A stretch of 64,000 bases of DNA from a virus. Taxonomy: Duplodnaviria > Caudoviricetes. Location of the stretch: positions 1,217 through 65,216 of IMG/VR virus record IMGVR_UViG_3300021602_000008. The stretch is one strand, 5' to 3'. The number at the start of each line of letters is the position of its first letter. The first letter of the stretch is position 1. The notes beneath the pieces are model-generated. The model did not search any database. It was not told where the DNA came from and worked only from the letters and a program-made list of their open reading frames with translations. The translations under genes and the position numbers were made by a program. Positions 5,847-60,996 of the stretch are shown piece by piece.

Positions 5847-8363
5847 ATGGGATTGCCAAGTCAGAATATACCGGAAAAAGAGAAAGACTTCAATTGGGGC
5901 AAGAGTTGCGTTACATCAATCATAAAGATGGTAGGCAATTCGTATTTGCTGAAGATGAAGGATAAGTTCTGTTTTGATATGTACAATGGTGTATTCAATG
6001 AAGCTGATTATGATTATCTACGTAAGGTTGATTCATATGAATATCCTGCAAAGATCCGTTTCATTCCGCTTCTAAGACCAAAGGCAGATCTTCTACGCAG
6101 TCAGGAAATACAACGTCCATTTAAATTCCGTCCATATACCGTTGATCAAACAAGTGTTGAACAGAAAAGTGATGCTGTTACACGCGAGGTTCTTGGAGTG
6201 ATCAAGAACAAGATGATGATGAAACTTCAATTGATCACATCTGCAAAGGAGCAACTTGAACAGGTACGTGGTCAGATTGATCAAATGCAACAACAGGCAC
6301 AACAGGAAGGAAAGCAGATTCCACCTCAACAGATGGCCGCCATGAAACAAGCTCAGAATGAATTGGATCTCGCCATGAGTCCATTGAGTTCAGAACAGAT
6401 TCTTTCACAGGCAGAACTTGAAAAGATAGATACTTACTACAAATACACACACCGTGATTTCCTTGAAGTTATCGGTGAGAATTCCCTGAACTACATGATT
6501 GCAAAGTATCGCATACGTGATATGTTCAATCGTGGTTTTGAGGACAAGATGTGTACCGATAAGGAATATTACTATGCACACTATCATCCAGGGGATCCGG
6601 ATCCTGTGGTACGCCGTGTTAATCCATTGAACTTCTATTATTCGAATGATGAGGAATCAACATGGGTTGGTGATGCAGAGTGGACAATGGAAGAGCGTTA
6701 CATGACACTAAATCAGATAATCGATGAGTTCAAGTTCGACATCAAGGAGGAGCATATGGAAATCCTCAAGAAGAAATTCTTCTATTACTATGACGCTTCG
6801 CGTTTCGCATTTTATCCAAATACATTCCAATATGGAAACCCTGCAGACTATAACACAGACAACTGTTTTGGTACTTCATTATACGCAGGTACTATGGACT
6901 TGTCCAACAAGATCCGTGTGTGTTATGCAACATGGAAAAGTACACGCGAACTGAAATTCAAACAATCACCAAATAAATATATTCCTGATATGCCATTCAC
7001 CCATTGGATGAATGATGATGATGATGCACCACGAAAGGAAGAGACATTAGTTGCCCGTTATGTAAATGATATTTGGGAAGGTGTTGCGATCGATAGCAAT
7101 ATTTTTCTTAGAATACAAAAGATGCCTTACCAATTGCGTGAGATCGATACTTATGGAAAGGTAAGCAATCCTTATATCGGATGGGCCCATAACAATATTG
7201 AACGCAGACCATACTCATTGATTTGGGCTGCCAAGGACATTCAGATCCTTTATAACCTGATCCATTACCACAAGGAATTGTGGCTTGCTCTTTCAGGTGT
7301 AAAGGGTTTCATCATGGATAAATCACAGATGCCTGATGGTATGTCAATGCAAGAATGGTTATACCAACGTAAACTTGGTATGGGATGGATACAAAGTGTA
7401 CGCGAAGGACTCACACGGCAACCTACCTATAATCAATTCCAATCCTTTGACGATTCCATTTCTCCGGCAATACAATATCTAACTGGAATCCTAAGTCATC
7501 TTGAAGAACTCGCAAGTAATATAATGGGAGTATCAAGACAACGATTGGGAGCAATGAATAACAGTGATGGAAAAGGTACATCAGAGATGGCAATATCTCA
7601 GAGTGCCTTGGTTACTGAAATCATCTTTCATCAACATGATCAGGTAAAACGAAGGGTTCTTGAACGCACATTGAATCTTTGCCGATTGGCATGGAAAGGT
7701 GGAAAGCGAGGACAATATGTTATTGGTGAAATGGCACAGGCTATATTGAATGTTCCTGAAGGAGCATTGAATAGTGCTCAGTTTGAGGTATGGATGGATG
7801 ATAATGGAAAACAGGAGCGTCTCATTACGGACCTTCGCCAGGTCGCTGCACAACAATATGGAAAAGGTGCGGTGACATTAAATCAATTGGTTCATTTCTT
7901 TACCCTTGATAACTTAAAGGATCTTGAACATACACTTGAAAAGTATGGTGATCTTGCCGAGCAAAAGGCAGGTCAGGCATTTGAAAGTCAGCAACAGGCA
8001 GATGCAGCAAAGGATAAGGCTAATGCCGATCTTCAGATCATGCTTGAGAAAATAAAGGCAGGTTATCAGAATGCTGATATTGAAATACAACAGAAGAAAC
8101 TTGATCTTGATTCAATGAAATTCAAGGAAGAAACCCGTCTTCGTGAAATGGAGATCACTACAAGAAGCAGTGACTCACGTTACACAACAGATGAAAAAGC
8201 TTCTGTGGATCTTAAGTATCTTGAAAGTGAAAACCAACAATCGCTTCTTGAATATCAGAATGAACGCGAGAAGATTGCAATGGATATGCATATAAAAAAC
8301 AAGGATATTGCAAGCAAGAATGCGATGGGTGTGAAAAAACAAAATGCTTCTAAAAGAAGTTGA
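5847..8363 (+). CDS. Portal protein
   Basis: 838 aa directly after TerL; LPSQ..P.KEK..W N-terminus, GVSRQRLG motif and coiled-coil C-terminus as in crAss-like portals. Confidence 0.9.
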   Translation: MGLPSQNIPEKEKDFNWGKSCVTSIIKMVGNSYLLKMKDKFCFDMYNGVFNEADYDYLRKVDSYEYPAKIRFIPLLRPKADLLRSQEIQRPFKFRPYTVDQTSVEQKSDAVTREVLGVIKNKMMMKLQLITSAKEQLEQVRGQIDQMQQQAQQEGKQIPPQQMAAMKQAQNELDLAMSPLSSEQILSQAELEKIDTYYKYTHRDFLEVIGENSLNYMIAKYRIRDMFNRGFEDKMCTDKEYYYAHYHPGDPDPVVRRVNPLNFYYSNDEESTWVGDAEWTMEERYMTLNQIIDEFKFDIKEEHMEILKKKFFYYYDASRFAFYPNTFQYGNPADYNTDNCFGTSLYAGTMDLSNKIRVCYATWKSTRELKFKQSPNKYIPDMPFTHWMNDDDDAPRKEETLVARYVNDIWEGVAIDSNIFLRIQKMPYQLREIDTYGKVSNPYIGWAHNNIERRPYSLIWAAKDIQILYNLIHYHKELWLALSGVKGFIMDKSQMPDGMSMQEWLYQRKLGMGWIQSVREGLTRQPTYNQFQSFDDSISPAIQYLTGILSHLEELASNIMGVSRQRLGAMNNSDGKGTSEMAISQSALVTEIIFHQHDQVKRRVLERTLNLCRLAWKGGKRGQYVIGEMAQAILNVPEGALNSAQFEVWMDDNGKQERLITDLRQVAAQQYGKGAVTLNQLVHFFTLDNLKDLEHTLEKYGDLAEQKAGQAFESQQQADAAKDKANADLQIMLEKIKAGYQNADIEIQQKKLDLDSMKFKEETRLREMEITTRSSDSRYTTDEKASVDLKYLESENQQSLLEYQNEREKIAMDMHIKNKDIASKNAMGVKKQNASKRS

Positions 8364-9621: not shown

Positions 9622-10710
9622 ATGGAGAATCAGAACCAAAACAATCCAGCACAACCCGCAGCGACAGAATTCGATCTTTCGCCAAATCTTGATTTGATGG
9701 CAGCACCTGACAATGGTGGTGATCCAAACAATCCTTCTACTGACATGATCAGTGGTTTGCCAAACCTTGATGCAGACAAGAATCTCAATAACCCGCCGTC
9801 ACAAATTGATTCACCGAATACGAATCAAAATATTACGAATAACCAACAAGCTTCTGTTACTAATCCTGTATTTGAAAAATATCGGGAAAGGTTAAAAACT
9901 GAGTATGAAAAATCAGGAAGGCAATTGCCTGAAGATCTTTCTGAAGATAATCTTCTTGATCGTGCAAGTGAATTATATGCACAACCACGACAGTTACATC
10001 CTGAAGTTGATAAGTTCAACAAGGCAATTGAAAATGGTGTTGATCCCGAGCAGTATTTCAAGACCATGCAGGGAATCATGGAAGTCGAGAGTATGGAGTC
10101 TCATGCCCTTGTGGAACTTTCATTGAGACAGAACTTCGGCAAGTCTGAGCAACGACCAAATGGTTGGGATGATGCAAAGATAAAATCCACACTTGATAAA
10201 ATGGAGAACGCAGGATTTCTCGATATCGAGGCTGAGAAAATAAAGACAACCTATTCAGAACAAAAGCAACAGGTTGCTGATAATCTCATTCGTGAGAACA
10301 ACATCAGACAAAATGAAAACATTTCACGTAACAATGTGGAACGTGAAAATGGTATTAAGCAAACGCTTCAGTACCTTGATAAGATTGACAATATTGGTGG
10401 ACTTCCAATTTCACAAAGTGATAAAGCGGAATTTGCCAATGAATTTAGATACCTTGTCACACCTGACGAGAAAACCGGTACATCACCACTATTGGACATG
10501 TTGCAAAGCGACGAGACTTTATTGAAGGTGGCCTTATTCCTCAGACAGGGTGAGACAAAAGTGAAAGAACACCTCACAAGAGCCAAGGAGGGAGTTAAGA
10601 AGGATTTCTTCAGTAGATTAGATCCAGAACCAAGAATGCCGAATCGAGGCAATAGTACGCCATCGTCAGAAATAGATTTCGATGCTCTATCGGCACCCGC
10701 AACAAATTAA
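9622..10710 (+). CDS. Putative capsid scaffolding protein
   Basis: Acidic disordered N-terminus plus helical coiled coil, immediately upstream of the MCP. Confidence 0.7.
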   Translation: MENQNQNNPAQPAATEFDLSPNLDLMAAPDNGGDPNNPSTDMISGLPNLDADKNLNNPPSQIDSPNTNQNITNNQQASVTNPVFEKYRERLKTEYEKSGRQLPEDLSEDNLLDRASELYAQPRQLHPEVDKFNKAIENGVDPEQYFKTMQGIMEVESMESHALVELSLRQNFGKSEQRPNGWDDAKIKSTLDKMENAGFLDIEAEKIKTTYSEQKQQVADNLIRENNIRQNENISRNNVERENGIKQTLQYLDKIDNIGGLPISQSDKAEFANEFRYLVTPDEKTGTSPLLDMLQSDETLLKVALFLRQGETKVKEHLTRAKEGVKKDFFSRLDPEPRMPNRGNSTPSSEIDFDALSAPATN

Positions 10711-10730
10711 AAACCTAAACTTAAAAAAGA

Positions 10731-12161
10731 ATGAAACTTATCGGCACAGGCACTTACGATGCTAACCGCACCACAATGACAAACTCATTGGCTGCTGCAT
10801 TGTTGACACGACCTGAAATCGCGATGAACGTAGTGAACCTTTTCGAGAATAACTTCTCGGCATTTTCGTCTTACCTTGCTCGTCGTGGTATGGCTAAAAA
10901 AGGTCTTGCTCCCGACATGTCAACCGAAAACTTTAAGGTGATCGGAAACCGTAAGTACATGTGGGCATTGAAAGGCTATCCGTTCCGTAAGGGAACTTTG
11001 GTCTCTACAGTGGCTTCACCTACTACGGCTACTGTCCTTGGACAGATTTTCACAATTGATGTAGACACAAACTACTTCTCTCCAAACGATGTACTTGAGT
11101 TGAAAGACCGCCGTACACAATTGTTGGTGATGAATGAGTATCCTGTTGAAAACACACCTAATGTATGGACATACAAGGTGAAATTGATGAGTAATGTTGC
11201 AGGTGCTTTTGTTCCTGCTGCTCTTATCACTGCAGGTGCAGAAATCGGATTCTCAAGTACCGCGTTTCCTGAGTTATCAGAAACAGGTTACGAGAAGAAT
11301 ACCTTCCCTGAGTGGCACACAAACTACATGACTATCCAACGCATGCAATACTCGATCTCAGGATCAGCACAGAATACCGTGTTATGGGTAGAGCATAATG
11401 GACAACGCTTGTGGTTCAAACAACAAGAACTTGAAATGATGCGTCGTTGGGCGTATGCACGCGAGAATCAACTTATCTTCGGAAAAGCGACTATCGATGC
11501 AAACGATACAACTTATGTGCGTGACTTACAAGGTCGCGAGATCATTTCCGGAGACGGTTTGCTTGCACAAGGTGATGGATCATTGAAATACCAATACAAT
11601 ACTCTTAACGTCCGCGTTATCGAGAATGTAATGCAGAACCTTCAATTGATGACTAATGGTGACGGTGTTACTGAAGTTTTCGTTATGGGTGGTCAAGCAT
11701 TCATTTGGAATTTCCAACGTTTGATGCGTGATGTATTCAAATACAATCCACTTCCTTTGTTTGTTTCTGAATCAGATATCAAACAAGGTGTAAAAGTTGC
11801 TTTCAATGCATACGAAATGGGCGGTGTCCGTTTGGTTACTGCTTGGAACCAAGCATTTGATGCAGCATGGAGACCGCAAGACCGCGATATCTATGGACAA
11901 AGCAAAGAATCTTCCCGTGCTATTTTCTGTTCACTTGGAAATACAATCGGTGGAGATCCAATGACAGAACTTATCGCTCTCGGAAACGGAAGTGAAGATC
12001 GTCGTTTTGTTAAAAAGATCATCGATGGAATGGCTTCCCCTGATGGCAACAAACGTGCAACAGCATCCAACTCAATGGACGGTTACCAAGTACAAGTGCT
12101 TAGTGAAACAGGCATTTGCATGAAGAACCCATTCGGTGTTGCTGAATTGTTCAAGCCTTAA
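10731..12161 (+). CDS. Major capsid protein (crAss-like, HK97 fold)
   Basis: 476 aa; TMTNSL N-terminus, NYMTIQR, ISGSA, SGDGLL and NP.G..EL C-terminus typical of crAss MCPs; codon choice suggests high expression. Confidence 0.9.
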   Translation: MKLIGTGTYDANRTTMTNSLAAALLTRPEIAMNVVNLFENNFSAFSSYLARRGMAKKGLAPDMSTENFKVIGNRKYMWALKGYPFRKGTLVSTVASPTTATVLGQIFTIDVDTNYFSPNDVLELKDRRTQLLVMNEYPVENTPNVWTYKVKLMSNVAGAFVPAALITAGAEIGFSSTAFPELSETGYEKNTFPEWHTNYMTIQRMQYSISGSAQNTVLWVEHNGQRLWFKQQELEMMRRWAYARENQLIFGKATIDANDTTYVRDLQGREIISGDGLLAQGDGSLKYQYNTLNVRVIENVMQNLQLMTNGDGVTEVFVMGGQAFIWNFQRLMRDVFKYNPLPLFVSESDIKQGVKVAFNAYEMGGVRLVTAWNQAFDAAWRPQDRDIYGQSKESSRAIFCSLGNTIGGDPMTELIALGNGSEDRRFVKKIIDGMASPDGNKRATASNSMDGYQVQVLSETGICMKNPFGVAELFKP

Positions 12162-13772: not shown

Positions 13773-14591
13773 ATGCTTTTGCGTCCAGCAGAAAAAATCC
13801 TAATCAACTCCTTCTCGGCAAACTCAGTTGTGCCGATTTCAGGAGGCGTTACCGTAGAAGGCTATGGTGATATCCTTGCAACAGAAATCATTGAAGCGTA
13901 TTGCATTTGTCCATCTGATTGCGTAGCACAGGTGAGCGTTGTATGTATTACAATTCCTGATTCTTGCGAGTGTCCATACGAATGGCCTTTGACAATCCGT
14001 ACACTTCCTTGTTTGAATGATTACACAGTTCAACAAACATTTGGTTCAAAGAAGTATTATGGTTATCAGAACCCATCCGGTGCAACACCAACAGCGAATG
14101 AGACTGCCCTTGCGGTTGCGGCTTCCATCAACAACGATCCTACGTCACTTGTGACTGCGGTAGTTGGATCATGGGCTTCCCCAACATTCACACCATCAGG
14201 TGCAGGTACTTGCATCCAACTCACAGAGAAGGATTGTCAGAAAACTTGTGGCTTTGAAGTGTACACAGATGCAGGCGTTATCACATTGGCTATACCGCAT
14301 GAAAATGCTGTATTGAGTTCAATTGATCTTGCTAAATTGTTCCCAATCCAATGGGGTGTATTTGGATCCCGTCCAAATCTTCCTAATTGCGGAGACTATT
14401 GCAAATATCACTTCAAACTTCGTAAATCATGCAGCGTGCAGGACATCAGTCAGGCAAACGCTTTTGATTGCTACGAGCAAGAAGTTGATTTTTATGTGAA
14501 CAACACAAGTGGAGATTACGTAACCTATTGGTACACAGAAATGCAATCAGCATTTACTGCATACCTAACAGGATGCGTTATTGTACCTTAA
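13773..14591 (+). CDS. Cys-rich structural protein, possible auxiliary capsid protein
   Basis: 272 aa with 15 Cys, beta-rich, AASINND motif, inside the head/tail block. Confidence 0.6.
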   Translation: MLLRPAEKILINSFSANSVVPISGGVTVEGYGDILATEIIEAYCICPSDCVAQVSVVCITIPDSCECPYEWPLTIRTLPCLNDYTVQQTFGSKKYYGYQNPSGATPTANETALAVAASINNDPTSLVTAVVGSWASPTFTPSGAGTCIQLTEKDCQKTCGFEVYTDAGVITLAIPHENAVLSSIDLAKLFPIQWGVFGSRPNLPNCGDYCKYHFKLRKSCSVQDISQANAFDCYEQEVDFYVNNTSGDYVTYWYTEMQSAFTAYLTGCVIVP

Positions 14592-14597
14592 ACTTCG

Positions 14598-14936
14598 ATG
14601 ATGGAATTTTGGGAAACCATATCCATTATATGTATTTTCTGTCTTGGATTGAGAGCCATTTCCTCCGAAGAAATGGTTCTCTTTCCGGTCAGGAATTACT
14701 TCATTGAACGTTGGGATAAATTCGCTGCAATGAAAATAAACATTGCAAAACCTATTATCCTTTGTGTGGTATGCATGCCGAGTGTTTGGGGAACTCCAAT
14801 ATGGTGGTCTCATTTTATCATTAGGGAATATGTCTTCCATTGGTGGACAATTCCTATTTACATCATTAGTCTTTGTGCTTGTTCATTCATCAATTGGTTT
14901 GTATGGTCATTGTTTGAATTGATCAGAAAGTATTAG
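14598..14936 (+). CDS. Small membrane protein with CxxC motifs (DUF1360-like)
   Basis: About three hydrophobic segments; CIFC, KPIILCVVCMPSVWG and CAC motifs. Confidence 0.65.
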   Translation: MMEFWETISIICIFCLGLRAISSEEMVLFPVRNYFIERWDKFAAMKINIAKPIILCVVCMPSVWGTPIWWSHFIIREYVFHWWTIPIYIISLCACSFINWFVWSLFELIRKY

Positions 14937-14972
14937 GGATATGAAAAACAAAACCTTAACTTGTAAGTCCAT

Positions 14973-15638
14973 ATGAGTACACTTGCTGAAATAGGATTTT
15001 CCATCCGTAACCAAGTAAAGGGTTTCTTTCAAAGTGATGATGAACGCATCGACATTGAACTCATCTATAAGATGGTTCGTCAGATTCGTTCAGTATTGAT
15101 TCGTGAACGCTATAAGGAAACACAGACTGTTGATGATCAAATGTATCAACGGATTTGTTGCATTGAGGTACAATGTAGAAACATCCAATGTAATGGTGTT
15201 GATTCAGGAGTTATCGAATATTATGCTGAGATTCCTTCATTGGAAAGTCTTGGTGGAATTGAGATAAAATATGTTGGTACTGCTGACATGCTTCATGAAT
15301 TCAAGTATCGTAATTGGTCAGCAAAACTTTATGGTGACTACTCTCCCTGGACAGGAAACAAACCATTCTATACACAATATGATTCACAGATGATATTGGG
15401 AAACATGCCTACCAAAGGCATGAAGTACATTTGTATGATAGTATTGCTTGATGATCCTATTGGAACAGGATGTTATTTATTGACAGAGAATGACCAATAT
15501 CCAATTTCAGGAAATATGATTCATCAACTTGAACTTATTGCCATCAAACAGTTGATGTCATCTCTGAAGGAAATTCCTGATATGAAGAATAACGCATCGG
15601 AAATATCTCCGATCGACCAAAATATTAAAAGCACATGA
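14973..15638 (+). CDS. Tail ring protein
   Basis: MSTLAEI...SDD....ELI...V...RS.LI N-terminus and YPIS motif of crAss ring proteins. Confidence 0.7.
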   Translation: MSTLAEIGFSIRNQVKGFFQSDDERIDIELIYKMVRQIRSVLIRERYKETQTVDDQMYQRICCIEVQCRNIQCNGVDSGVIEYYAEIPSLESLGGIEIKYVGTADMLHEFKYRNWSAKLYGDYSPWTGNKPFYTQYDSQMILGNMPTKGMKYICMIVLLDDPIGTGCYLLTENDQYPISGNMIHQLELIAIKQLMSSLKEIPDMKNNASEISPIDQNIKST

Positions 15639-16030
15639 GTGATATAATCATGCAGTCGCAACCGCAGGCGGTTCCGTTATCTGCAAATCTCATTACGATT
15701 ACACATCCAATCAATGTCAAGGGATTCATGTTTGTAATCAACACACAGTATTGCTACCAAACAGAACTTGTTGTATTGGTTGGATGCGGATGTGGTGGAA
15801 AGAAGAAGAAGGAAGTGAATCATTTTCGCGTAGTAATGAATGGTATATTCTATGATATTCCCGATACGCATGCGGTACATACAACACAACCTATCGCGTG
15901 TGAAGATCAGGATTTCCTGAATAAACGTTCCGCTATTGGTGATACAAATATTGTACAGGATTTCAATATGTTCCGAAACAATAATGATCCAATGGCAATT
16001 GCTGCAAAGGCAAATCGAAACCCCATGTAA
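15635..16030 (+). CDS. Hypothetical protein with GCGCGG motif
   Basis: 131-aa ORF overlapping both neighbours (ATGA at its start, TAATG at its end). Confidence 0.6.
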   Translation: MSDIIMQSQPQAVPLSANLITITHPINVKGFMFVINTQYCYQTELVVLVGCGCGGKKKKEVNHFRVVMNGIFYDIPDTHAVHTTQPIACEDQDFLNKRSAIGDTNIVQDFNMFRNNNDPMAIAAKANRNPM

Positions 16031-16488: not shown

Positions 16489-17127
16489 ATGTTACAGGGA
16501 AAATATGTACCGATCGAAGCAATTGCCGCGAAAGTGGCCCGTGATGCAAGAAACACACCATTCGATTTCTATGATATCGTTGAGTGGTGTGTGGAGGCTG
16601 AAAACAACATCGGAGATTTCGAGGAATTCATGCCGTATAGAAATGTTCCTTTGGAGATTACCGACAAAAAAGCATATTTGCCATGTAACGTATATCGTCT
16701 CCTCAGTGTGAAGGGAATGAATTGTACCGTTTTCAATTATGACAATAATGGAACCTATTTACTTTTTGGAGATAACTCTCTTGTAAATCGCGGTAACCCT
16801 TCACAACCTATTCCTGCTGATGGAACAGTATCTGTATTGATAGATTACATTGGTGTTCCAATTGATGAGAAGACCGGTTATCCATTAATCAAGGATGGTC
16901 ATCAGGAAGCGTGTTATTGGTATTGCATGAAGAAACTGCTATTTGAGGATTACATGTCAGGCAAGATCAATGAAAGCAAGTATCAGTATATTGATTCGCA
17001 ATATGGTCATTATGTAATCAAGGCGAAGTCATCCTTCAGATTCGTATCGCGTGACGATATGGAACGTATGATGATGAGTCGAATGAATATGGTTCCAAAA
17101 TTGAGATTTCCAAAAAACATGAAGTAA
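16489..17127 (+). CDS. Tail tubular (ring) protein
   Basis: DIVEW..EA...IG, KAYLPC, Y.G.P.DE.TGYPLI motifs; directly upstream of the muzzle gene. Confidence 0.75.
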   Translation: MLQGKYVPIEAIAAKVARDARNTPFDFYDIVEWCVEAENNIGDFEEFMPYRNVPLEITDKKAYLPCNVYRLLSVKGMNCTVFNYDNNGTYLLFGDNSLVNRGNPSQPIPADGTVSVLIDYIGVPIDEKTGYPLIKDGHQEACYWYCMKKLLFEDYMSGKINESKYQYIDSQYGHYVIKAKSSFRFVSRDDMERMMMSRMNMVPKLRFPKNMK

Positions 17128-17128
17128 C

Positions 17129-20100
17129 ATGCCCAATCAGGTAAACGAATTCTATAAGGGAATTGATGCTGACACCGATCCCATGAAGACGGCTCCCGAT
17201 TCCTTGCGTGATGCCCATAACATTCGGATCATAAATAATAAGGGACAGGGATTTGTCATTACCAATATTGGTGGAAATGAATATGAATACAGTCTCTCTC
17301 TTGGATTCATCCCATTGGGATCATGTCAATTCAATGGTATTGAATACATTTTCAGTATCAACCCAATAACACTTTCAGGAGAGATTGGGACATATCCTTC
17401 GCCACTACGTGGAGTCAATAACAGTTGTAATCCTACAGGTGGATTTGATCATACTTACAAACCATTGAATAATTTCACATTGGCGGTTAACCCATTGGTT
17501 AATCCCAATGCTCAACTATATGATTTCAGGACAACATTGTTCGATTTTGATTGCGAACATCAGATTGAATGTTTTGCACGTATCGATTACGATGACTCTG
17601 TTAACCTTTATTTTACTGACAATAAGAATCCTTACAGGACCATAAATAGTGGTTTCAATCAAAGTGGTATATGTAACGGACGTAACTATTGGAATGGAAG
17701 TTTCCCAAATGGAATCGAAGCTTTGTCTGAAACCTGTTCTGCACCTATTGTAGATAGTATTGCACTTGATCAGTCAGGATGTTTGCGTGCCGGAAACTGG
17801 ATATTCTATGCACGTTACAATACACTTAATTTCAATCCTACAAGTTTCTTGGGAGAGAGTAATGCGGTAGAGATATTTGCCGATGCACTTTCTGCAGGAA
17901 TTGTCATTGATGGTGATATTTCACAATTGGATTGTGGTAAGTCGATAACATTGAATTTCAGCAATATCGATACTACGTATCCTTATTTGGAGATTGGTTA
18001 TTCATATCACTTTGATGGTACTTTTGAAACTGCATTGGTTGATTTTCTATTTCCTATAAATCCAAACTCAACTACACTTCAGATAAAGATTACGGGTTGT
18101 GAGGATACCGTTGATATCATTGCTGATGATATCATTTCAAGAAAAACAAGTGATGATATCTTCAAGACAATTACCCAACTGGAGAATAGGTTTTGGGGTG
18201 CGAATGTAAAAACGCGTGCCAAGTTCCATCCTGATCTTCTTGCATTTGCCAAAGCCACCATAGCAAAACCAAATGACTCACTTTCCATATTTGATAAGCA
18301 GTTTGCAGTTGGTGATGGTGCCCCTCCATATGGACAATACAAGGATTACCAAAAGACATATAAGGAAACCGGTTATTTCCGTTCTGAGGCATATGCACTT
18401 TCAATGATATTTGTTTTCAAGTCAGGACGCGAAAGTGAACCATTGCCATTATCATCCTATGACTATTGGTTTGATCCGACATTGCTTAATATCAATGATC
18501 AGGGTATCATTCGTTTTCCTGCACCAAGTGCTGACGCAGGACAATCGCCATTACAACAATCACAAAATTCACTTTCCATCATGGGAATTGAATTTGACAT
18601 GACTGCGTGCGTATTCACACAATGGATGAAGAATAATGTCTGTGGTTTCTATTTCATGCGTGGTGAGCGTAATCCAAATATGATGTATCAGGGAATGACA
18701 CTTGATACATTCAATGCGGTAGGATTACATAATAATATGTCTCTTTTGAGTTATGGTGGAATGTGGCCCACATGTGCAGGTGGACTATTGATTCCTGGAA
18801 TGACAGATGTTAATCATGAGACATTGAATAGAATTCCTCTTTTTGGAGGTACTGCACCATTCCTTGGAACATGTAACCCTACAATAGGTGCTTCTCATAC
18901 AGCAGTGAGTGAATATCATGTTCCTGTTGTTGCACGACAATTTGGGATGTATTCTCCTGATCATTTCTTCAACAAGGGATTAACGGATAAACAATACACC
19001 ATCTACAAGATGGCTCAATGTACTTATAGTTCAACTACATTATCATCTGATCATACTCCCAATAGATTATATGAGGTTCAGGCTATAACTCCGATTGCCG
19101 CACAACGAGAGCAACCGATATGCCATAATATCAAGGAATGGACTGTACAACCCAATCCAAGTGGAACGGGATTCGTCAGTTATTTTGAAGAACCTACAGA
19201 TGAGAATAATGCCAATTCATTTTATTACAGAAAGAAACATGAATTTGCATTGCCAGGATATTTCTTGTGGGCAAACCGTTCATTTGCAACTACCCGTTAT
19301 ATTGGAATAGATGCTACCGCCACCCCTACTAACATTGCAAATTATAGTGAGGCATTGATAAGCATTTTCAAGGAAGATCCTGATCCATTAAATGGATTCA
19401 TCTATACAGATCAGTATGATGTGAAGAATACAAAGTATTTCAAGATCTCCAATTTCATTGATATCAATACTTATACATCAGTAATTCCTGGTGCTGTTTT
19501 CTATAGAGGAGATTGTTTCCTTCAAAGAACATACATCAAGCAGTTGCAGAATCCTTCTGTATATTCAAATACAAAACAGGATGATTTCAACAACTATTTC
19601 AGTTTTGGCATCCTTATGTCTGTTGTTACCGAAAACTCTGTTAATACGGCAATGCGTAGACAAGATGCCTCATACAGTTATTATCCTGCTACAGGACTTG
19701 GTAATCCAAATCTATTTGTAACACAGAATAATTCACTTGAAAGTGAACTATACAACAAGGGGTACCAACAGGTGCTTTCCCTATATGCCATATTCGGCTA
19801 TGATTCATCTATTCCTTATCGTGGTGTTCACTATCCAACAAGGATAAAATACTCCAACCTGCACACTCCTAATGCGTTTTCCGATGCATATCGTACAATT
19901 GACAAGGCGGCATACAAGGATTTTGATTTCAGGATGGGATCAATCAATAAGATACTTGACTTAAATGCAAAGCTTATCTCGATTCAGGATCAGGGAATGA
20001 ATCTCCATTATGTGAATGATCGTGCAATGCTTTCACAGGGCAATGCCTCAGCAGGGCAATTGCTTTTGGGTGCCGGAGATATCCTGGCACAGAAAGCAGA

Positions 20101-21013
20101 GAATATCACGGATTTCTTTGGTACACAACATCAATGGAGTGTGGTAAAGACAGATAATGCCGCTTATGGTATTGATGCCAACAAGAGAAAAATATGGAGA
20201 TTGGTGGTAGGTCAGGGATTGGAATTGATTTCAGATACAAAACATTATCGTGCAAAGCTATATGAGATCCTTGAACAAGGTCCCAATTCCTTTCATTCCG
20301 ATATCATTGAAAGCATTCCTGATAATCCTGTTTGTAAGGGAGGGATAGTTGGTGCTTTTTCACGAAGCAATAATGACATCATCTTTGCATTCATGTTTGA
20401 TCAGACCATACAAAAGCCATTGAATAACTATTGTATAAAATTCAATGAGAGTGGTGATTCATTTACGGGAACATATGGTCATAAGTCACCATTCTATATG
20501 GCATTGAATAATGATTTCTTCTCATTCAATCCCAATATCTTTCCTTCACAGAATATCATTCCTACAGGACAGGGTGATTTCTATCGTGAGGGCGTGGATG
20601 TTACCACTACAGGAAATGATAATCGTTCAACCTTTTATGGTGTACTTGAACCGATGACTTTCTCATTCAATGTAAATGCAGGAAGTGATTTCATCAAGAT
20701 CTTTGATCATTATTATATCAATAGTGATCCTAACACTCCTGACAATGTACAATATGAGACTGTTCAACAATTGTGTGTACAGAATCCATTTCTACAACCG
20801 GTAATATCAAATTACCTTCGTCCTGCGTATAAGGAGAATCAATGGATGGTTCCGATCTCGCGTGCTACGGCTATCACAAATATGACCAATAACATCTATG
20901 CTGTAGGATCGCCAATGAGAGGACAATTCATCAAAACCACATTGGAATATATGTTGAACAAACCTATATTTGTAAAGTCAGTTGATACACATTTTAGACT
21001 ATCATCAAAATGA
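17129..21013 (+). CDS. Tail stabilization/muzzle protein
   Basis: 1294 aa; N.F.KG.D.D...DA.N.R start, YFTDN.NP.R.IN, GYFRSE.Y, GD.F, FGTQHQWSV and Y.ID..KRKIW motifs. Confidence 0.85.
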   Translation: MPNQVNEFYKGIDADTDPMKTAPDSLRDAHNIRIINNKGQGFVITNIGGNEYEYSLSLGFIPLGSCQFNGIEYIFSINPITLSGEIGTYPSPLRGVNNSCNPTGGFDHTYKPLNNFTLAVNPLVNPNAQLYDFRTTLFDFDCEHQIECFARIDYDDSVNLYFTDNKNPYRTINSGFNQSGICNGRNYWNGSFPNGIEALSETCSAPIVDSIALDQSGCLRAGNWIFYARYNTLNFNPTSFLGESNAVEIFADALSAGIVIDGDISQLDCGKSITLNFSNIDTTYPYLEIGYSYHFDGTFETALVDFLFPINPNSTTLQIKITGCEDTVDIIADDIISRKTSDDIFKTITQLENRFWGANVKTRAKFHPDLLAFAKATIAKPNDSLSIFDKQFAVGDGAPPYGQYKDYQKTYKETGYFRSEAYALSMIFVFKSGRESEPLPLSSYDYWFDPTLLNINDQGIIRFPAPSADAGQSPLQQSQNSLSIMGIEFDMTACVFTQWMKNNVCGFYFMRGERNPNMMYQGMTLDTFNAVGLHNNMSLLSYGGMWPTCAGGLLIPGMTDVNHETLNRIPLFGGTAPFLGTCNPTIGASHTAVSEYHVPVVARQFGMYSPDHFFNKGLTDKQYTIYKMAQCTYSSTTLSSDHTPNRLYEVQAITPIAAQREQPICHNIKEWTVQPNPSGTGFVSYFEEPTDENNANSFYYRKKHEFALPGYFLWANRSFATTRYIGIDATATPTNIANYSEALISIFKEDPDPLNGFIYTDQYDVKNTKYFKISNFIDINTYTSVIPGAVFYRGDCFLQRTYIKQLQNPSVYSNTKQDDFNNYFSFGILMSVVTENSVNTAMRRQDASYSYYPATGLGNPNLFVTQNNSLESELYNKGYQQVLSLYAIFGYDSSIPYRGVHYPTRIKYSNLHTPNAFSDAYRTIDKAAYKDFDFRMGSINKILDLNAKLISIQDQGMNLHYVNDRAMLSQGNASAGQLLLGAGDILAQKAENITDFFGTQHQWSVVKTDNAAYGIDANKRKIWRLVVGQGLELISDTKHYRAKLYEILEQGPNSFHSDIIESIPDNPVCKGGIVGAFSRSNNDIIFAFMFDQTIQKPLNNYCIKFNESGDSFTGTYGHKSPFYMALNNDFFSFNPNIFPSQNIIPTGQGDFYREGVDVTTTGNDNRSTFYGVLEPMTFSFNVNAGSDFIKIFDHYYINSDPNTPDNVQYETVQQLCVQNPFLQPVISNYLRPAYKENQWMVPISRATAITNMTNNIYAVGSPMRGQFIKTTLEYMLNKPIFVKSVDTHFRLSSK

Positions 21014-26767: not shown

Positions 26768-29700
26768 ATGACACCACCTCCTACACCACCACTCAATCCA
26801 TCAAACATTCAAACACCGACAATCACACCTGCTCCAAAAAAATTGGATTATATGGGATTGCGTCTTTCAGGGGTTGATAACAATTCTATTCTTGATTATT
26901 CCGCGAAAACCAATCAGGTTCCAACCATGCTTTCAAAAGAGGATGCGTGGTCAAAGTACGGTGAATCCGTATATGGTAATGACAAGATGAAGTTTGGATT
27001 GGCATATGATAGTTCCAATGAAGCGTATAATGCTTACAATACAAGTGTTCATGAAGGTACAATGCAGAAAGTGCAATACCGTTCAAATGATGCCATTCCA
27101 AGTAATGTCTCAACTCCATTTTCAAGGATGGAACATGGTTATTCCAATTTTGCACCTCCAACATCACAAAAAACCATTGATGATCGTTTCATAGGATCTG
27201 CAACAGGGGCATATACACAAATCAAATCCGATGAGATATTTGCTGATGGGCGTAATATTGTATCGACAAAGGATGGCAATGTAAGTAAAGATGAATATTA
27301 CAGGAACCAATTACATAGGATGTCGGGTGGTACTGATAAGACAAGTGATGTATGGTTTAATAGTGCATTGTTTGCAGGAACAATGGGACTTGCAAAACAG
27401 GATGAATCTGCTCATATGCTTGCCCTTGATTATGATGAACAGGGATTACCCATATGGAGGGATAAATCCCTTACGGAGTCATTGAAAGGATCTACTATCC
27501 GTTCTGCGTGGGGATCACGCACGATGCACAATAATTGGTTTGAGGATATTGGTGGCACTGCAGTAAATGAATTCGTAACCAATGTACCTTCCATATTCGG
27601 ATCACTTGCCGAAACGGGAATGTATCTTGTAAAGGGACAAGTCATTGATCCTTATTTGGCACATTCTGGCATATCACCAAAAGAACAGAAGTCATTCGAT
27701 GAAGGGTTTGCCAACAATCCATTGATGCGTTGGGCAAACATTGCACAAAATGTTTCATCCGCAGGTTATTTCAATGAATCTCAAAATCAACAACGTGGAC
27801 TTGAAGGGACATCTGGAAGAATGATTGGTGGTGCAATTGGAATGATGCTACAAGCTGTAGCAACAGGTGGAATTGGTGAGGTAGGTGGATTATTGAAAGG
27901 TGGAATAGGATTGAGTGATGAAGCATTTCAATTATCGGCTAAAATTGCAATAGATGAAGGCAAGTCGCCATTGATAGCTGAATTACATTCCATTGCAAGA
28001 CAGGGTATTACAAAGAATGTTTCTGAACGTTTAAACCGTGGTTTCTTTACTATTGCAATGGCTGATGGTTTTCATCAGGGAGCAAAGGAAATGGGAATTT
28101 CTCCCGAGAAAGCCGCAATGGGTTATCTTGGTTCAGCAGTGACAACATATGCATTGATGGGTATTGGACATAAATGGTTCTCTCCTGCCACATCTTCAAT
28201 GATTACAAGACAATCGACCGAATCATCCATGAAGGATATCGTGAAGGAAACTTTCATGGACTATTCAAAGAAGATGTTTCCTGATGTCGCTCCTGCTGAA
28301 TTGACCGGAACACAAATTGATGCCGTTGTAAAGGAAACATCAAAAGGTGTTTTTAGAAAAATGGCTGAAGCTGCAAAAAAAGGTGGCAATGCATTATTGA
28401 ATGGAAGGATTGTCCCTGTTTCAAACATAGCATCGGCAACATCTGAAATGGGTTTGATTCACATGGCGAATAATTCCATTCAGATCATGCAGGATTATTA
28501 CAGCAAATATGCAGGTGATGATACTTCAGGAATTGATGGGATGTATGGAGATGTTAATGAAAATGTATTTTCAAGAATCACCAATGGATTAGGTGGTGCA
28601 CTTGAGAATGGTCTGTTGATGGGTGCGATATCAACTGGAATACATTTTTACAAGGGTGGAAAATTAATGAGTCCACAGGAACAGTCACGCAGAATGACAC
28701 TTGGTGATGCAACAGTCAATAACATGTTGCCTGAATTGGAGAAGACTGCAGATGCGATGTACAAGAATGGTGAGATTGGTGCACATTGGGCCAATGCAAA
28801 AACCGGTGAGGTTATCCGTGATGGTGAGATTGATCCGCAAACAGGAGTGCGTCCAACATCTATTGCAGATGAATCATACAGTAACTTCAAACAGGATATC
28901 CGAAATTACAAAAAGATCTATGATGAGAGTGGACTGAAAAAATGGAATGATAGTGCCACAAAAGATAAATACATTAAGAAATCCGGTACAGAAAATCTTG
29001 ATGCACATACATCCAAGATGCTTGATGAATTGGTTGATCCAAATATGCTTGCACGTGAGGGTATTGAACATGCGGTTAACATCAGGGATCTTAATAAAAA
29101 ACTTGTTGATGCAAAGACTGACTTAGAAAAATCCACTATCAAAAAACAATTGGATATTGCCAATGAAAAACTGAATGACATCATTACTGATAAGCGTTCA
29201 AATGAAATCATTCGTGATGGAATTGTGCGTGATTATATTGCTGATACAAATAAGGCTTATGACTATGGTTCTTCAGGAGTAAAAGAAGCTATTGCATTAC
29301 AGAAAAAAGAGGGTTTTCATAAGGTTGTTGATGTCTTTAATACTTCTGTTTCAAATGGAATTGCAAAATTCCTTAATGATAAGAATGACGCAGAAGAGAC
29401 AATGGGTAATGCTATTTCTCAGATAAAAGAAATCACATCATCAATTTCAAAAGGTAATAATGAGAAAATAGTTAAAGTTGCATCTGATCTTGTGAAAACA
29501 GGATCTGTTGCTGCTGCAGAACATCTCGCTAATCTTAATAATGGAATAAAGGCTGCTGCTGAAAAACACATCAACGAGACTATTTCCGATATAAAGGCAA
29601 AACATCCAGAAGAGGTAAAGAATGTTGAGGTTGATCCTGAAGATGAACCAATGGATACACTTGAAGAACATATTAGGTTATTGCCTGATAGTGCAAAGGG

Positions 29701-32700
29701 TGAATTTAAGAGTCGATTTGATGACATACATTCCGCATTGGGAATTGCAAATAATATTGCAAATATGAAACCCGAGGCACGTACACAGGAACAGGTTAAA
29801 ACTGAGGCTTTTCTTTCATCTAATGTAGGAACCTCACAAGATCCAATATTGAAATCATTCGAATCAAGTATAAAGGATTTCAAGGAATCAAACCTTTCTA
29901 CAATACAGGACGCTCATTTAGTTGCAATAAAACTTGAAGAAGTGCAATCAAGGATTCTTGCAATGCTATTGAATAAAGAAGCATATTCAAAATTATCTGA
30001 TAGCACTTCTGGACTGAATGATGTTAATAGGGCTCCTGATTCATATTATGATGAGGAAAACAAGGATTCTGTAATTTCAAAATTGAATGATTATAAGAAT
30101 CAGTTGCTTGATATTGTACAGAAATCAAGTATAGCTTCCGAATCTGCACGTTTAGATAATGAAGCAAATGTGAAGATCGGTTTCATTAATAATGCTAATA
30201 GGGTTAATTCTCAAATCATTGAAAATCTTAAGAATTTTTATCCTGACAATGCGATTATTCTTGGTACACACAAAACTATTGATGAATTCAATAATCTTGT
30301 AAAACAGATTTCTGATATAAAGACTGCTGCTGGAACTAATGAGGATGGTACATCAAAAATCACATTTGAGGATACAAAGAAAGTTTACGATATACATGAT
30401 CGTTTGCTTGAATCCATTGCAAAAATGGAATCACAAATCCATATTGCATTCAAGACAATAAAAGGTTCTGCAGAAACAATACATACCGTTTTCTTCAAAG
30501 AAGGCATTGAGGGTAATTATTCATATGATCCAGGATTTGGTGGTCTTACCGATGTAAATTATATCCAATGGGAACCTGAAACATTTGACAAGACAGGAAC
30601 CCGACTTTTCCCATTGTATAATTCATCACAGGCTTATCATGAGGTAAGAACAGGTGAATCCAATTGTCTTCCTGCAGCAAAGGCGTACCTATACAAAACC
30701 GTTTCGGAACATCTTCATAGAATTATGAGGATTTCATCAAAGGAATTCCTTGATAATTACAAGAATTATATTGATCGAAATGTGAAATTGGATCCTAAGT
30801 ATATTGTTCCTTCATTCGAACAACGCCAGGCAATACATACGCTTGTTGCTTTCATGAATGACAGTAATAACTTATATGTAGATCATCCAAACAAGACTCA
30901 GTTTGTACGTGATCAAATCAATGTACTTGGTTATGCAGGTGCAGGAAAGACAACATTGGTTGTACCAAGTGCAATCCATGTATTCCGCGATATCCTTGAG
31001 TCACGTGAATCCAAATCAAGTGATTCATTGAAACTTGTTGGAACTGCACCATCAAATCCACAAATTACTAATCTTAGTGATGCATTCAAGTCAAGTGGAC
31101 TGAAAGACTCTTGCACATTTACAACGATTGATGATATTCTTAATGAGAAAGGAATTCTTTCAAAAGAAAAACCATCATTCTTGATTGTTGATGAAGCCAG
31201 TGAATTAAATGCAGAGGAATTGGCAAAAATGACTTCCATTGCACGTGATAATGGAATCAAGATAATCCATGTATGTGATCCATCACAACTTGGTGATATA
31301 AAGGATAGACTTGAGGAAAAGGAACGTAGTTCACAGATTCCCGATGTAATGTATAATCGTGAATCCACCACACCGATTGTCGATGTATTTAGAAGTGGTG
31401 TTTTTGACATTTCCAGGTTGCAACAACAATATCGTGATGTATCACTTTATGCAAATGGAAAGCAGGTTTCATTACTTCAAACACAATATACAGTTGATTC
31501 CGGTGGAAGAACAAGAAGTGGTGTTGTCCTACGTGGTTATGATTCAAAAACCATTTCGGAACAGATGGGTAAATTTGCTTCTGATCTAAAGACCGATGGT
31601 GTTATTCGTACAGGTACGGTTATGATTGTGGCAAATGACAGTGATAGGCTTTCTGTAATCGATGAACTATCAAAGAACCATGGAATTGATCGCAAGATTG
31701 CTGAAAATGCCGTAAAAACGATTATTCGTGGCGAATTCACTGCAAAAGGATTGTCGTTTCCACGTGTATATGTAAATATTGATAAGGAAAAATTAGGTCC
31801 AGATTATAACAAGGCCCAATTGACAGCAGTTTCACGTGCAAAGGAATTTGCAGATGTAGTAACTGATGTTCCAACAAATTCCCTTCCAGGATCACGTGAG
31901 GTTTCACAACTTATTGATGAGAATGCCGATTATATTAAGCTTGAGGATGAACGTAAGCAGAAATATGCACTTTCGGAACAATCACGCCTTTCATCAATGT
32001 CTGAAGCACTTAAGGGTATTGATGTTCCAAAATCTAATGTATCTGTAAAAAGTACTAAGGTTACAAGTAATAAAAAAACAGTTAGTCAGGATGATTTTGA
32101 AGTTGGGAAAAAATACAAGGCTTCAAATGGGGATATTGTTACGGTTGAATCATTGATCGCTAATGATGATGGATTTTTTCATGTGAAACTTTCTGGTTAT
32201 GACAAACCATTTTCCCCTTTAGGAATTCATAGTCTTGGATTGGTGAAGATAGTCAATGCAAGAAAGGGATCTATATTACGTACACGCGTTGACAAATGGG
32301 AAAACAAGAAAAATAATTTTAGTGTTGGTGGTTTGGTTCGTGATGAGAATAATGTAACTGTACGAATCTCCAGTATAGCTGTCGATGCTAAAGGGAATTA
32401 TTATTTTAAAATTTCCGGAAGTGACAAGGAGATAACAAAAACACAATTCCTAAAGAAATATAAATCATTCAAGGCTAACGACATTACAATCTTCAATACC
32501 CATTCCGATAATTCCGCAACGGAAGAAATGTTGTTTGCAACAAAGAGCATACAGAACCATAAGAATGGTCTATCAACATATTCCTCTGCCACAAATCCAT
32601 TTGGCAGAAAGAATATAATGGATAGTAACATGCAGGTTTTGCATGACCGTATAAAGATGTTGGTGCTCAATAAATCAGGTGCATTCAATGGGTATTCAAA

Positions 32701-35700
32701 ACTTATGCTTAAACGTACATATCATCAATCCATTGAATTAAATGGCAAAATGATGAATGATGTCGTTACTGTTTCACTTGATCTTGCAGATAATGCTATG
32801 CGTGATTATCTTGGGAAACAACTCAAGAATAATAATATCCCGGTTACTGATGAGAATCTAAGACGTTTCGCAATAATGGGAACCATGTTCATGCCCAATG
32901 ATAAGGCAAACCATGATTTCAATGGCGAATATAAGGCACCTGTCACAAAACTCATTGGAGAAACTGATGATCAATTTACCGATCGAGTAGCATATGAAAA
33001 ATATAAGTTTGACATTCGCAAGAAAGCATATCAATCAAATGAGAAGGTTGTAGATCTTGGTTATGTTGCAATGAAATCTGCAACACCTGGAAATGTCAAT
33101 TATAACAATGGATCCACAAATGGTAAAGTCGCATTCAGTAAAATGTCAGACTTATTGAAGGATCATGTTGCAACATCAAAGGGAGGAAAGATATATAAAT
33201 CAGGAAATGTATATTTCTATGAACCGATTTTTATTGATAATCCAGATAAGCTTGATTTTACTGTCAACTCTCCATCATTAAAAGGTAACGGGAAATTTGA
33301 ACCTGGCTATTACCTAATGTATTCACATGATGAGACCATGACAAATATTGGTATGGTAAAATTACGTTCACAGAATCTTTCAAATGCAGAATTGCAAAAG
33401 ACACAACAAATTCTCCGTGAGCGTTTTGACCTAAACAAGTCTAATGCTGAAGGAAGTCCTTCACAAGGTAAGTTTTGGGAGCCAATTAATAATTTTGTAA
33501 GTGGGAATAGATATGCATTCTTCAGTGCACCAAGTAAAGAAGGTGGTGAATGGAAAATAAATCCACTCTTTACTGAAGAAGGATTGAAGAAAGCTGCAGC
33601 GAAAACAATGTCTCCACAAGAAATTGCGGAAAAATATGATGGCATTGGTGATCTTGTTGCAATGAAGATAGATAAGAAAACCACTCCAGGAAAGGCTACT
33701 GCACGTTTTAATTTCAAATATTTTGATGGAAATTATGGTGGAAAAGTTACTGATCTTGATAATGTTTCAATCGAGAGAAAATCAAATGCACTTGCTGATG
33801 CAATAAAAATATATACTGAATCAAAACAAAATGTTGCATTGCGTGATTTCGCACTTATTGATCCAACAAATAGTCATATTGCAGAAAAGGATTTTAATAA
33901 ACTTGAGGCGAACATTGCTGGATTTAATATGCCTCAGATACTCACATCATCAGATAGTATAGCAAATGAGACTTCAAAGAATTCAAAAGTTGATATAACA
34001 AATGCACCTCCTGCTGATCCGGATGAGGCAAATGTGAGATTTGATTTCGAATCACATTCATCAACATCAAAGGAATTTGAAGAGCATATTGATTTTGTGC
34101 CATCGGAAACAAAAGATCAGAGACAGGCCGATTCAATTGAAAATGTATCCAATGAAACAACATCCAATTCCATTCCTGTTGAAAAGGAAGAGATTTCACG
34201 CAATAAACGTGCACAGGATTTTGGAAAATTGCTTGATATATTTGACAACAATCAATACAAGATAAATGAGATCTTGTTAAATATAGGTGGTGGTATAGTT
34301 GACCTTTCATCCTATTCACGAAAAATCTTTCCAAAAAGATACGAATGGAATGCTGCAGTGAATCGTTATTATGAACGCTTGACATTCCAGGATGGCACAT
34401 TAAAAAATAAGAAATACATTGTTGTTCGTGATGGTGCAGAGCAAACTGTTGGAATAGATGATTTGAGATACACAGATTCATCTTCTATTTCAAATGCGAA
34501 TACTTCACGTTCAATGCTAAGTGATTATATCGTTCATCAACTTTCAAAAGAGGAGAATTTCGAGAAATTTATAAAGAAGATTTTCCCGAAGGCAATTCTT
34601 TTTACTGATGCGGTTGCAAAGGAAATTCCAATGTCTGATTTTGCTCAACAATTGAAAGGTGCTGTAACGAATATCTTGTCTGATAAAGATGAATCAAGTT
34701 CACAGAGTTCAATCCAAATAGGAAATGACTTAAAGGCACCCTCATTTTCAGATCATGTACGACTGATTCTTGGAAGTATAAGGTTGAATAGTTATGATAT
34801 CAAGGATGATGGATCAAGGAAAATGAATACACGTGGAACAGCATTTATAAATGTTGGTTCTGCTGAAACATTATTGATAAATGCTTCGCGTATAGCACGT
34901 TCAAAAAATGTAGGGAATCCTGATCGTGATTCAATGCGTGAAATTGGCAAGGTGATAAAACAGATGGCTATTGCCGGAATGCCTGGAAACAGATTGACAA
35001 ATCTTGCATGGTCTGTTTATGATTCTATATTCAATGATTCTGAACATTTTGAAAACAAAGAATCTGCAACACTTGGATTGGCAACGGCTGACATGGTTCG
35101 TCCAGATGGTGACATATCATATACAATGTGGGCGAAATATCCTTCAATGGTACATGAGTTCCTTTCTGATGTTGATAATACAAAATTCGATCTTGATGAG
35201 CAAATCATTCCAAAATCGATTGATATGCACACTGTACTTTCGGCAATACATTATAATTATGATTCCATTGTACAGAAGAATGTTTCCGAAATAATACTGA
35301 ATCGTGATAATTCAGCTTATGTTCGTCAACGTCATGGAAATGATCTTGTGAAAATCAAGGAAGGCATTAAGACTGCATTTAGAAATGGGATGTTTGATTT
35401 TGTGGAAACGGAAAGCGGAAAAACAGGTGAGTTAAAACCTCAAAAGAAACAAATGCTTTTCGATACATTCAAGGTAACTTTCATGCCACCAAACGGCAAT
35501 AAGGCTGTTACTTCGATATTTACACAAGATGAGATTAATGAGGCATTGGCATTTGGTATTAAGATTGATCCTAAAAACATAACAAAACAGGGTATAATTG
35601 CAGGATACAGGAATACCGCAAGCGGATTATCACAATTGATGCCAGACGGTGAATTGATTCCATTAATATCTTATGATAAGAATGGTGCAAGGCTTAATCC

Positions 35701-48663: not shown

Positions 48664-48664
48664 C

Positions 48665-60883: not shown

Positions 60884-60996
60884 AATAGTTGTTTTTGTGG
60901 TTTGTGTTTGATTTAATTCGTCGTTTTGTGTTTTGATTTCCTTAAGAATACTACTGGTTTTTTCCCGCTTTAATTTCCTGTGGATCGAAGCCATGA

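Follow-up and report, generated by a model that had tools for sequence, protein, structure and literature searches.

The CxxC membrane protein and its capsid neighbour

The window analysed here, a stretch of 64,000 nucleotides from a tailed phage (Duplodnaviria; Caudoviricetes), covers most of the 65,216-base IMG/VR viral record IMGVR_UViG_3300021602_000008 (positions 1,217 to 65,216), the completeness of which is estimated at 78%. Our subject is a run of forward-strand genes in which a Cys-rich auxiliary capsid protein (13773-14591) is followed by a 112-residue membrane protein with a CxxC pair (14598-14936), by tail ring protein 2 (14973-15638; Pfam PF25702 CrAss_Ring_2, E 2.2e-18), with three Cys invariant in 12 homologues, and by a 131-residue protein (15635-16030) that is kept in the syntenic block, with homologues in 10 related loci and no Pfam or PHROG match. 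A first-pass annotation made from the DNA alone had proposed that the membrane protein could be a minimal, inverted oxidase of the DsbB/VKOR kind that cross-links a Cys-rich virion shell. Here, we find that it belongs to a large viral family with an invariant CxxC, and that similar genes recur in the morphogenesis modules of unrelated phages.

The 112-residue protein contains three short Cys motifs (C12-I-F-C15, C56-V-V-C59 and C93-A-C95), and six Lys/Arg residues precede CVVC (R19, R32, R38, K41, K46 and K51), all as had been described. Its AlphaFold2 model, with a predicted local distance difference test (pLDDT) of 94.3 and a predicted template modelling score of 0.85, has helices at residues 2-21, 29-37, 39-44, 50-55, 60-75 and 84-111, three of them long. 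According to a DSSP assignment of the model, the four residues of the CxxC (codons 14763-14774, forward strand) are non-helical and stand directly before helix 60-75. The placing of CVVC at the start of a hydrophobic helix was therefore correct, this being the second membrane helix of the model.

A word-based search returned three relatives only. By contrast, when 1.84 billion cluster representatives were searched by profile, at least 380 matched at E≤0.001, 55 of them at E≤1e-10. We call the family FAM; its alignment holds the window protein and 98 of 152 proteins, those dropped being mainly two-stretch matches or sequences with long inserts. C56, C59 and S62 are invariant in all 99 sequences, and strong conservation is also seen at P52 (98), G17 (96), G65 (89), W64 (79), K51 (78), R32 (77) and C15 (74). 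C93 and C95 are not conserved, and there is no conserved second Cys pair. The residues between the two invariant cysteines are mostly hydrophobic (CVTC in 16 sequences, CCTC in 5 and CITC in 5), which suggests that the pair lies at or in the membrane. No convincing Pfam or PHROG family was found for any member in a scan of the 99 sequences, and a search of the Protein Data Bank (PDB) sequences with the FAM profile found nothing. In 50,697 phage records there was no match, at nucleotide or protein level, to the region, to the 112-residue protein, to the capsid protein encoded at 13773 or to one FAM member from the group of loci with tape-measure genes described below (type B).

Positive charge is distributed very unevenly over the family. 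Averaged over the 99 sequences, loop 1 carries 5.64 Lys plus Arg, compared with 0.02 for the N-terminus, 0.31 for loop 2 and 2.13 for the C-terminal tail. From these counts the positive-inside rule predicts three-helix inner-membrane proteins with the N-terminus outside, the C-terminus inside and the CxxC at the cytoplasmic face. The cytoplasmic position that the first-pass annotation gave to CVVC on the basis of one loop is thus also what the whole family predicts.

The gene just upstream was presumed to encode an exposed virion protein. Its AlphaFold2 model, built from 15 homologues (pLDDT 76.5), has as best Foldseek match a 333-residue capsid chain of phage crAss001, 7qof_a (E 1.3e-7, probability 1.00, TM-score 0.48/0.41). 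We take this chain to be gp36, since its length equals that of gp36, a protein reported to form the outer layer of the crAss001 capsid (PMC10172136). Both the gp36 fold and the place after the capsid gene are found for the window protein, and judging from the model and from synteny it is an exposed outer-layer capsid protein, in line with that presumption. The two proteins are alike in fold and in gene order and differ strongly in cysteine content, with 1 Cys in 333 residues for gp36 and 15 in 272 for the window protein, at a sequence identity of about 13%. Four of these cysteines are invariant among 25 distinct homologues. In the same set, the column pairs 72/97, 77/126 and 80/159 have identical patterns of presence, in 13, 11 and 8 sequences, respectively. 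As far as an alignment with few independent events can tell, such paired gain and loss suits disulfide partners better than four-ligand metal sites.

Cysteine along the window

Cysteines were counted by script over all open reading frames (ORFs) of the window, with names taken from Pfam and PHROGs, and binomial tails were computed against the window mean of 225 Cys in 20,939 residues (1.07%). All counts previously made by hand for Cys-rich proteins, for Cys-free proteins and for the longest ORF were reproduced. The auxiliary capsid protein is enriched (P(≥15) = 3.8e-7), as are ORF 581-817 (6/78; P = 2e-4) and two forward-strand proteins at 46618-49165, before the tail-fibre genes, that belong to no Pfam or PHROG family (46618-48663, 45/681, P(≥45) = 1.8e-21; 48665-49165, 8/166, P = 4.8e-4). 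Cysteine is absent from ORFs 8410, 9622, 12194, 21010 and 24758, with tails of P(0) = 1.4e-6 for 21010 and P(0) = 8.6e-4 for 24758, and ORF 26768-46579 has 7 (P(≤7) = 2.2e-22). These enrichments and depletions are far outside chance. For the muzzle-like virion protein (17129-21013, forward; PHROG 28748 virion structural protein, E 1.8e-18; the position of crAss001 gp44), the earlier count of 19 Cys was right, and the description as Cys-rich was not, since 19 in 1294 residues is only 1.5%.

Three large forward-strand proteins make up the depleted part (21010-46579; 1247, 653 and 6603 residues with 0, 0 and 7 Cys), and from their position alone they are presumed to be ejected cargo. The crAss001 proteins gp45, gp46, gp47 and gp49 are likewise Cys-depleted, with 2/842, 0/534, 1/2341 and 1/1349. 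In length, the 6603-residue product of 26768-46579 far exceeds the polymerase-like proteins of crAss001.

The rest of the virion block includes a portal (5847-8363; Pfam/PHROGs), a crass-type major capsid protein (10731-12161, forward; Pfam PF23898 Crass_capsid, E 8.1e-41) and tail ring protein 1 (16489-17127, forward; Pfam PF24228 CrAss_Ring_1, E 3.7e-27). Identity between this capsid protein and its counterparts in gut crAss-like and Flavobacterium phages does not exceed 27%, and the window therefore represents a divergent crass-like lineage. Further downstream are an endolysin (50325-50762, forward; PHROG 894 endolysin, E 9.3e-19) and a three-helix holin (50766-51254; Pfam PF11351 GTA_holin_3TM, 26.2 bits against a cut-off of 24.8). 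Following these, 51626-54742 encodes a 1038-residue tail-fibre-like protein with several collagen-like stretches of the tripeptide GTN, between which a module of about 60 residues is repeated. The replication arm includes a MoxR-type AAA ATPase (59783-60994, reverse; PF20030) and an HNH endonuclease (63018-63419, reverse) with 10 Cys in 133 residues, a Cys-rich outlier that is likely a zinc protein.

Genomic contexts, DUF1360 and disulfide-linked virions

FAM loci were found with a back-translated motif pattern, and we sorted their neighbours into groups. The pattern hit 67 loci on viral contigs, every one of which encodes a FAM member, and a single locus in 32.2 million contigs of 185,579 prokaryote species. 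FAM is thus essentially viral. About 20 of the 67 loci are crass-like and have the order capsid protein, two conserved proteins, auxiliary capsid protein, FAM and ring protein 2, with ring protein 1 and the muzzle further on. A separate search for ring protein 2 gave 21 distinct loci, 19 of them newly fetched and 8 of those on new contigs, and in 19 of 19 newly fetched loci FAM has the auxiliary capsid protein on one side and ring protein 2 on the other. Its position is fixed in the virion gene block of this Cys-rich crass-like clade. The largest group (27 of 67) has the order terminase, small Cys-bearing beta protein, FAM, 200-residue protein and tape-measure-like protein, and five loci have other arrangements. 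In all, three or more phage lineages that are unrelated to one another keep the gene beside tail or capsid genes.

Two of these neighbourhoods deserve a remark of their own. The protein just upstream of FAM in the tape-measure group (e.g., L028:9734-10096, reverse strand) is beta-rich, 104-128 residues long and without a family. It conserves Cys 4, 7 and 17 as well as one Cys close to its C-terminus, and some copies are fused to a C-terminal extension of 260 residues. The loci in which FAM adjoins a gp32-like single-stranded DNA-binding protein (SSB) with a Cys3 motif (L048, L033, L053 and L061; G006, estimated to be 6% complete) apparently come from a very large phage.

A possible link to a known family was provided by DUF1360 (PF07098; curated cut-off 21 bits). 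Two of the three nearest ESM Atlas clusters carry DUF1360 on 12-14% of their members. Gp7 of mycobacteriophage PG1 is a DUF1360 protein (41.4 bits); 468 of the 50,697 phage records have relatives of it, and the hosts are Actinobacteria in every case. DUF1360 proteins such as gp7 share with FAM the small size and three membrane helices, a conserved Arg-rich and acidic motif after helix 1, an invariant CxxC with a Trp behind it where helix 2 begins, the predicted orientation and a place among packaging and morphogenesis genes. The set of DUF1360 sequences shows the charge bias of FAM (0.54 vs 10.3), and its CPWC is invariant (28/28). The two families differ in loop 1, of about 30 residues in FAM and about 60 in DUF1360, and in the surroundings of the pair (CxxCM[AP]SxWG in FAM, CPWCxGMW in DUF1360). 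An hhalign comparison of the 99-sequence FAM profile with a DUF1360 alignment of 28 gp7 relatives placed 88 columns in register (E 0.0025, probability 11.8%), pairing the Arg/Asp motif after helix 1, the CxxC and the Ser of helix 3, and when the FAM hidden Markov model was run against a small set of 71 sequences, its best cross-match was the DUF1360 protein P0253, at 19.4 bits. The DUF1360 Pfam model gave no score for the window protein, either by hmmscan at E≤10 or in a six-frame search of the whole record. Taking profile alignment and shared build together, FAM appears likely to be a distant branch of DUF1360. In the literature searched, no test of the function of DUF1360 was found.

DUF1360-like proteins lead to two groups of phages with disulfide-linked virions. 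A virion-wide disulfide network is reported for phage PD491P1 (Cai et al., as cited in PMC13576161). Parabacteroides phage PDS1 is placed in the same proposed genus as PD491P1, with 97.37% BLASTn identity quoted from another study and 78.5% intergenomic similarity in the source's own calculation (PMC10773633). The depositors of PDS1 annotated its gp55 as DUF1360. This 85-residue protein consists of a helix, the residues RK, a loop, CDFCLSFW and two further helices, and so shares with FAM its build, the pattern CxxC-x-S-x-W and a place in the tail module just before the tape-measure region, with a shorter loop. The order gp54, gp55, gp56 and tape measure corresponds to the place of FAM in the group of 27 loci. 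When PDS1 proteins were compared with those loci, one weak tape-measure match and no close relatives were found; the shared gene order does not therefore come from close kinship. Relatives of gp55 number 45 in the 50,697 phage records, and named phages that infect Bacteroidota account for 44. One of the relatives is an unannotated ORF, apparently a missed gene, in the same position in Croceibacter phage P2559Y (NC_023614; L108:3501-3731), in the gap between P2559Y_0013 and P2559Y_0014.

The second group is represented by PG1. The Jabs preprint describes about 1,700 disulfides in a virion with separate hexamer and pentamer capsid proteins, the hexamer protein using Cys 271, 281, 347 and 563. 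PG1 has the same pair of hexamer and pentamer capsid genes, and its hexamer protein gp12 (9755-11503) has Cys 263, 273, 339 and 555, a constant offset of 8. Because these four residues align, PG1-type phages, which carry DUF1360, probably share the Jabs network. A PDB sequence search with the PG1 capsid protein found nothing.

Candidate roles and comparison with known thiol oxidases

The role that we place first is a redox one. The product of 14598-14936 would be a late inner-membrane protein of three helices, N-out and C-in, made as part of the virion-building block, and its invariant CxxC, placed where helix 2 begins in the cytoplasmic leaflet, would be a redox-active thiol-disulfide centre. 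Late in infection, this centre would help to oxidise the cysteines of outer proteins rich in Cys, the auxiliary capsid protein among them, either by acting directly on virion proteins or by taking electrons from thiols of the cytoplasm and handing them to an acceptor in the membrane, for instance the quinone pool. Since the pair is half-buried and a shuttle pair is absent, its substrates may, as a speculation, be small thiols or thioredoxin instead of capsids directly. In five genomes that carry FAM or DUF1360, a search for thioredoxin-fold genes found none, and the CxxC protein is thus the only redox-type motif seen in them. A search of these five genomes for Erv/ALR (PF04777) also gave no match, and the control genomes were equally without one. 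A redox role is ranked first because it is the only reading that covers both the invariant CxxC at the membrane edge and the association with disulfide-linked virions. It is held tentatively: of the virion cross-linking oxidase that had been proposed, the invariant CxxC, its predicted cytoplasmic face and the disulfide-like Cys pairs of the auxiliary capsid protein speak in favour, the supposed kinship with DsbB and VKOR does not stand, and what is left is possible rather than probable.

Several observations weigh against a redox role. FAM follows two glycosyltransferases in 11 of the 67 loci and lies between the gp32-like SSB and a UvsX-like recombinase in 4, a context that does not fit a purely morphogenetic role. 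Its neighbours in the tape-measure group are Cys-poor, with no Cys in 16 of 16 tape-measure-like proteins, and the overall Cys content of a complete 46-kb genome from it is 1.52%. The absence of a thioredoxin-fold gene counts here too, as do the single conserved Cys pair (C15 being present in 74 of 99), the lack of an identified cofactor site and the failure of Pfam (nothing at E≤10) and of the fold searches described below to show a likeness to any known thiol oxidase. Disulfide-linked virions are also reported for phages in which we find no such gene. In Agrobacterium phage Milano, capsid and neck, along with collar and tail, are described as linked through disulfides, and its genome has neither DUF1360 nor FAM; in crAss001, disulfides are reported in the tail and the portal vertex (PMC10172136), and FAM was not found there by profile. 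Since crAss001 is Cys-depleted in its ejected proteins without having the gene, this depletion looks like a shared crassvirus trait independent of it. Flavobacterium phage FpV4, also without FAM, has structural-block proteins with 13/248, 10/260 and 8/237 Cys, and in the block after the capsid gene its cysteine content (1.57%) is close to that of the window (1.69%) and above those of crAss001 (0.75%) and cr272_1 (0.64%). Cysteine richness may therefore follow habitat rather than the FAM gene. The FAM profile gave nothing credible in ten phages, namely crAss001, FpV4, cr272_1, cr4_1, Flavobacterium 11b, Cellulophaga phi10:1, Polaribacter P12002L, Bacteroides Versailles and BS-TP3, and Milano. 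A Versailles match at 8.5 bits was rejected; the ORFs concerned overlap a 271-residue opposite-strand ORF lacking family features. The links from FAM and from gp55 to DUF1360 are weak in score throughout, the Pfam score of gp55 (17.4 bits) being below the cut-off, and the FAM profile finds neither PDS1 gp55 nor PG1 gp7. The expectation that the gene would accompany Cys-rich virion proteins was accordingly borne out in part: the gene is fixed in the Cys-rich crass-like clade and has DUF1360-like relatives in two phage groups with disulfide networks, and it is missing from Milano, crAss001 and Cys-rich FpV4 and present in loci with Cys-poor or non-structural neighbours.

Nearly as likely is that the CxxC is a metal site, for Zn or Cu and perhaps shared across two or more subunits, in a membrane-anchored morphogenesis factor or metal handler with no part in oxidation. 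The virion disulfides would then arise at lysis or following it, either spontaneously or by the action of host enzymes. A non-helical CxxC immediately before a helix, as in the model, is a geometry also typical of zinc knuckles, and each chain has one invariant Cys pair. Upstream neighbours of FAM often carry Cys motifs of metal type: C-x7/8-C-x2-C in the gp32-like SSB, CxxC...CxxxC in a mini-protein and an N-terminal CxxC in the small beta protein. Milano, crAss001 and probably FpV4 have disulfide-linked virions without the gene, and the authors of the Jabs preprint favour late formation of the disulfides, during or after lysis. However, the residues between the cysteines are hydrophobic and embedded in the membrane, unlike those of the usual soluble zinc knuckles, there is no conserved third or fourth ligand, and the recurrence of the gene in the virion modules of heavily disulfide-linked phage groups would be left unexplained.

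Less likely, indeed improbable, is a membrane protein for lysis timing, a holin-like protein or one for superinfection exclusion, whose place among structural genes would reflect late expression only. Class I holins have three helices, an N-out/C-in topology and a charged C-terminal tail, and FAM, with about 110 residues, is predicted to be built in this way; its contexts also vary across phage types. Nevertheless, a class I holin would be expected beside the endolysin, and it is the window's own holin that adjoins its endolysin, 36 kb downstream. Holins are poorly conserved, whereas the 30-residue cytoplasmic loop of FAM has strongly conserved motifs next to the invariant CxxC, and its place beside tail or capsid genes has been maintained across unrelated lineages. 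As to a true but inverted and minimised DsbB/VKOR homologue, both DsbB and VKOR have, where a membrane helix begins, a CxxC whose two inner residues are hydrophobic; FAM has this motif too, and nothing further in it points to them. No Pfam match to either was obtained even at E≤10 with the window protein and three close relatives, and in a scan of the 99 FAM members at E≤1, DsbB was absent among the 25 of 34 families listed. Foldseek with the 112-residue model gave 48 matches at E≤10 and none at E≤0.001, with DsbB and VKOR absent among the matches listed, and in a wider structural search of 48,161 chains the best Z of 6.2 was helical-protein noise, with neither protein in the best 50. The model has three long helices against the four-helix core of DsbB and VKOR, although absence from fold listings does not exclude a fold. 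The label DsbB/VKOR-like thus has to be dropped, there being no likeness in sequence or, among the matches listed, in fold, three helices in place of four and no second conserved Cys pair, and descent from these enzymes is very unlikely.

Returning to the redox role, it can be extended to the wider family: DUF1360-like CxxC proteins, FAM included, might be cytoplasm-facing phage thiol oxidases that feed the quinone pool and make virion disulfides before lysis. We regard this broader proposal as doubtful, a little more so than a redox role for FAM itself. If true, it would be the first oxidative-folding machinery in bacteriophages and a new class of three-helix membrane thiol oxidases with no relation to DsbB or VKOR. 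The Jabs preprint treats as an open question whether the disulfides of virions arise spontaneously or are made by oxidoreductases of the host or the phage, and no description of such a function in phages, for DUF1360 or otherwise, was found in the literature searched. These genes offer a concrete, widespread and cheaply testable candidate, present in cultivable phages such as the B1-cluster mycobacteriophages of M. smegmatis and siphophages of Bacteroides and Parabacteroides. Even if the oxidase idea is wrong, a membrane protein family that is large, unannotated and confined to viruses, and in which a CxxC is invariant, has now been named, and the proteins of crass-like phages have been seen to split into a Cys-rich outer part and a Cys-free, presumably ejected part.

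New membrane routes to disulfides are still emerging, as a preprint on MauE and a paper on a giant-virus VKOR indicate. FAM resembles DsbB and VKOR in that a helix begins with a CxxC that is embedded in the membrane and encloses hydrophobic residues, and coupling to quinone, if it occurs, would be chemically analogous. DsbB has two essential Cys pairs, both periplasmic, and VKOR has a loop Cys pair in addition to its CxxC, whereas FAM has one conserved pair only, predicted to be cytoplasmic. The Erv-type oxidases of poxviruses and mimiviruses are soluble or membrane-associated enzymes that use flavin adenine dinucleotide and have thioredoxin-like partners. In purpose, the role proposed here for FAM would be like theirs: a virus-encoded route to disulfide bonds for virions in a reducing compartment.

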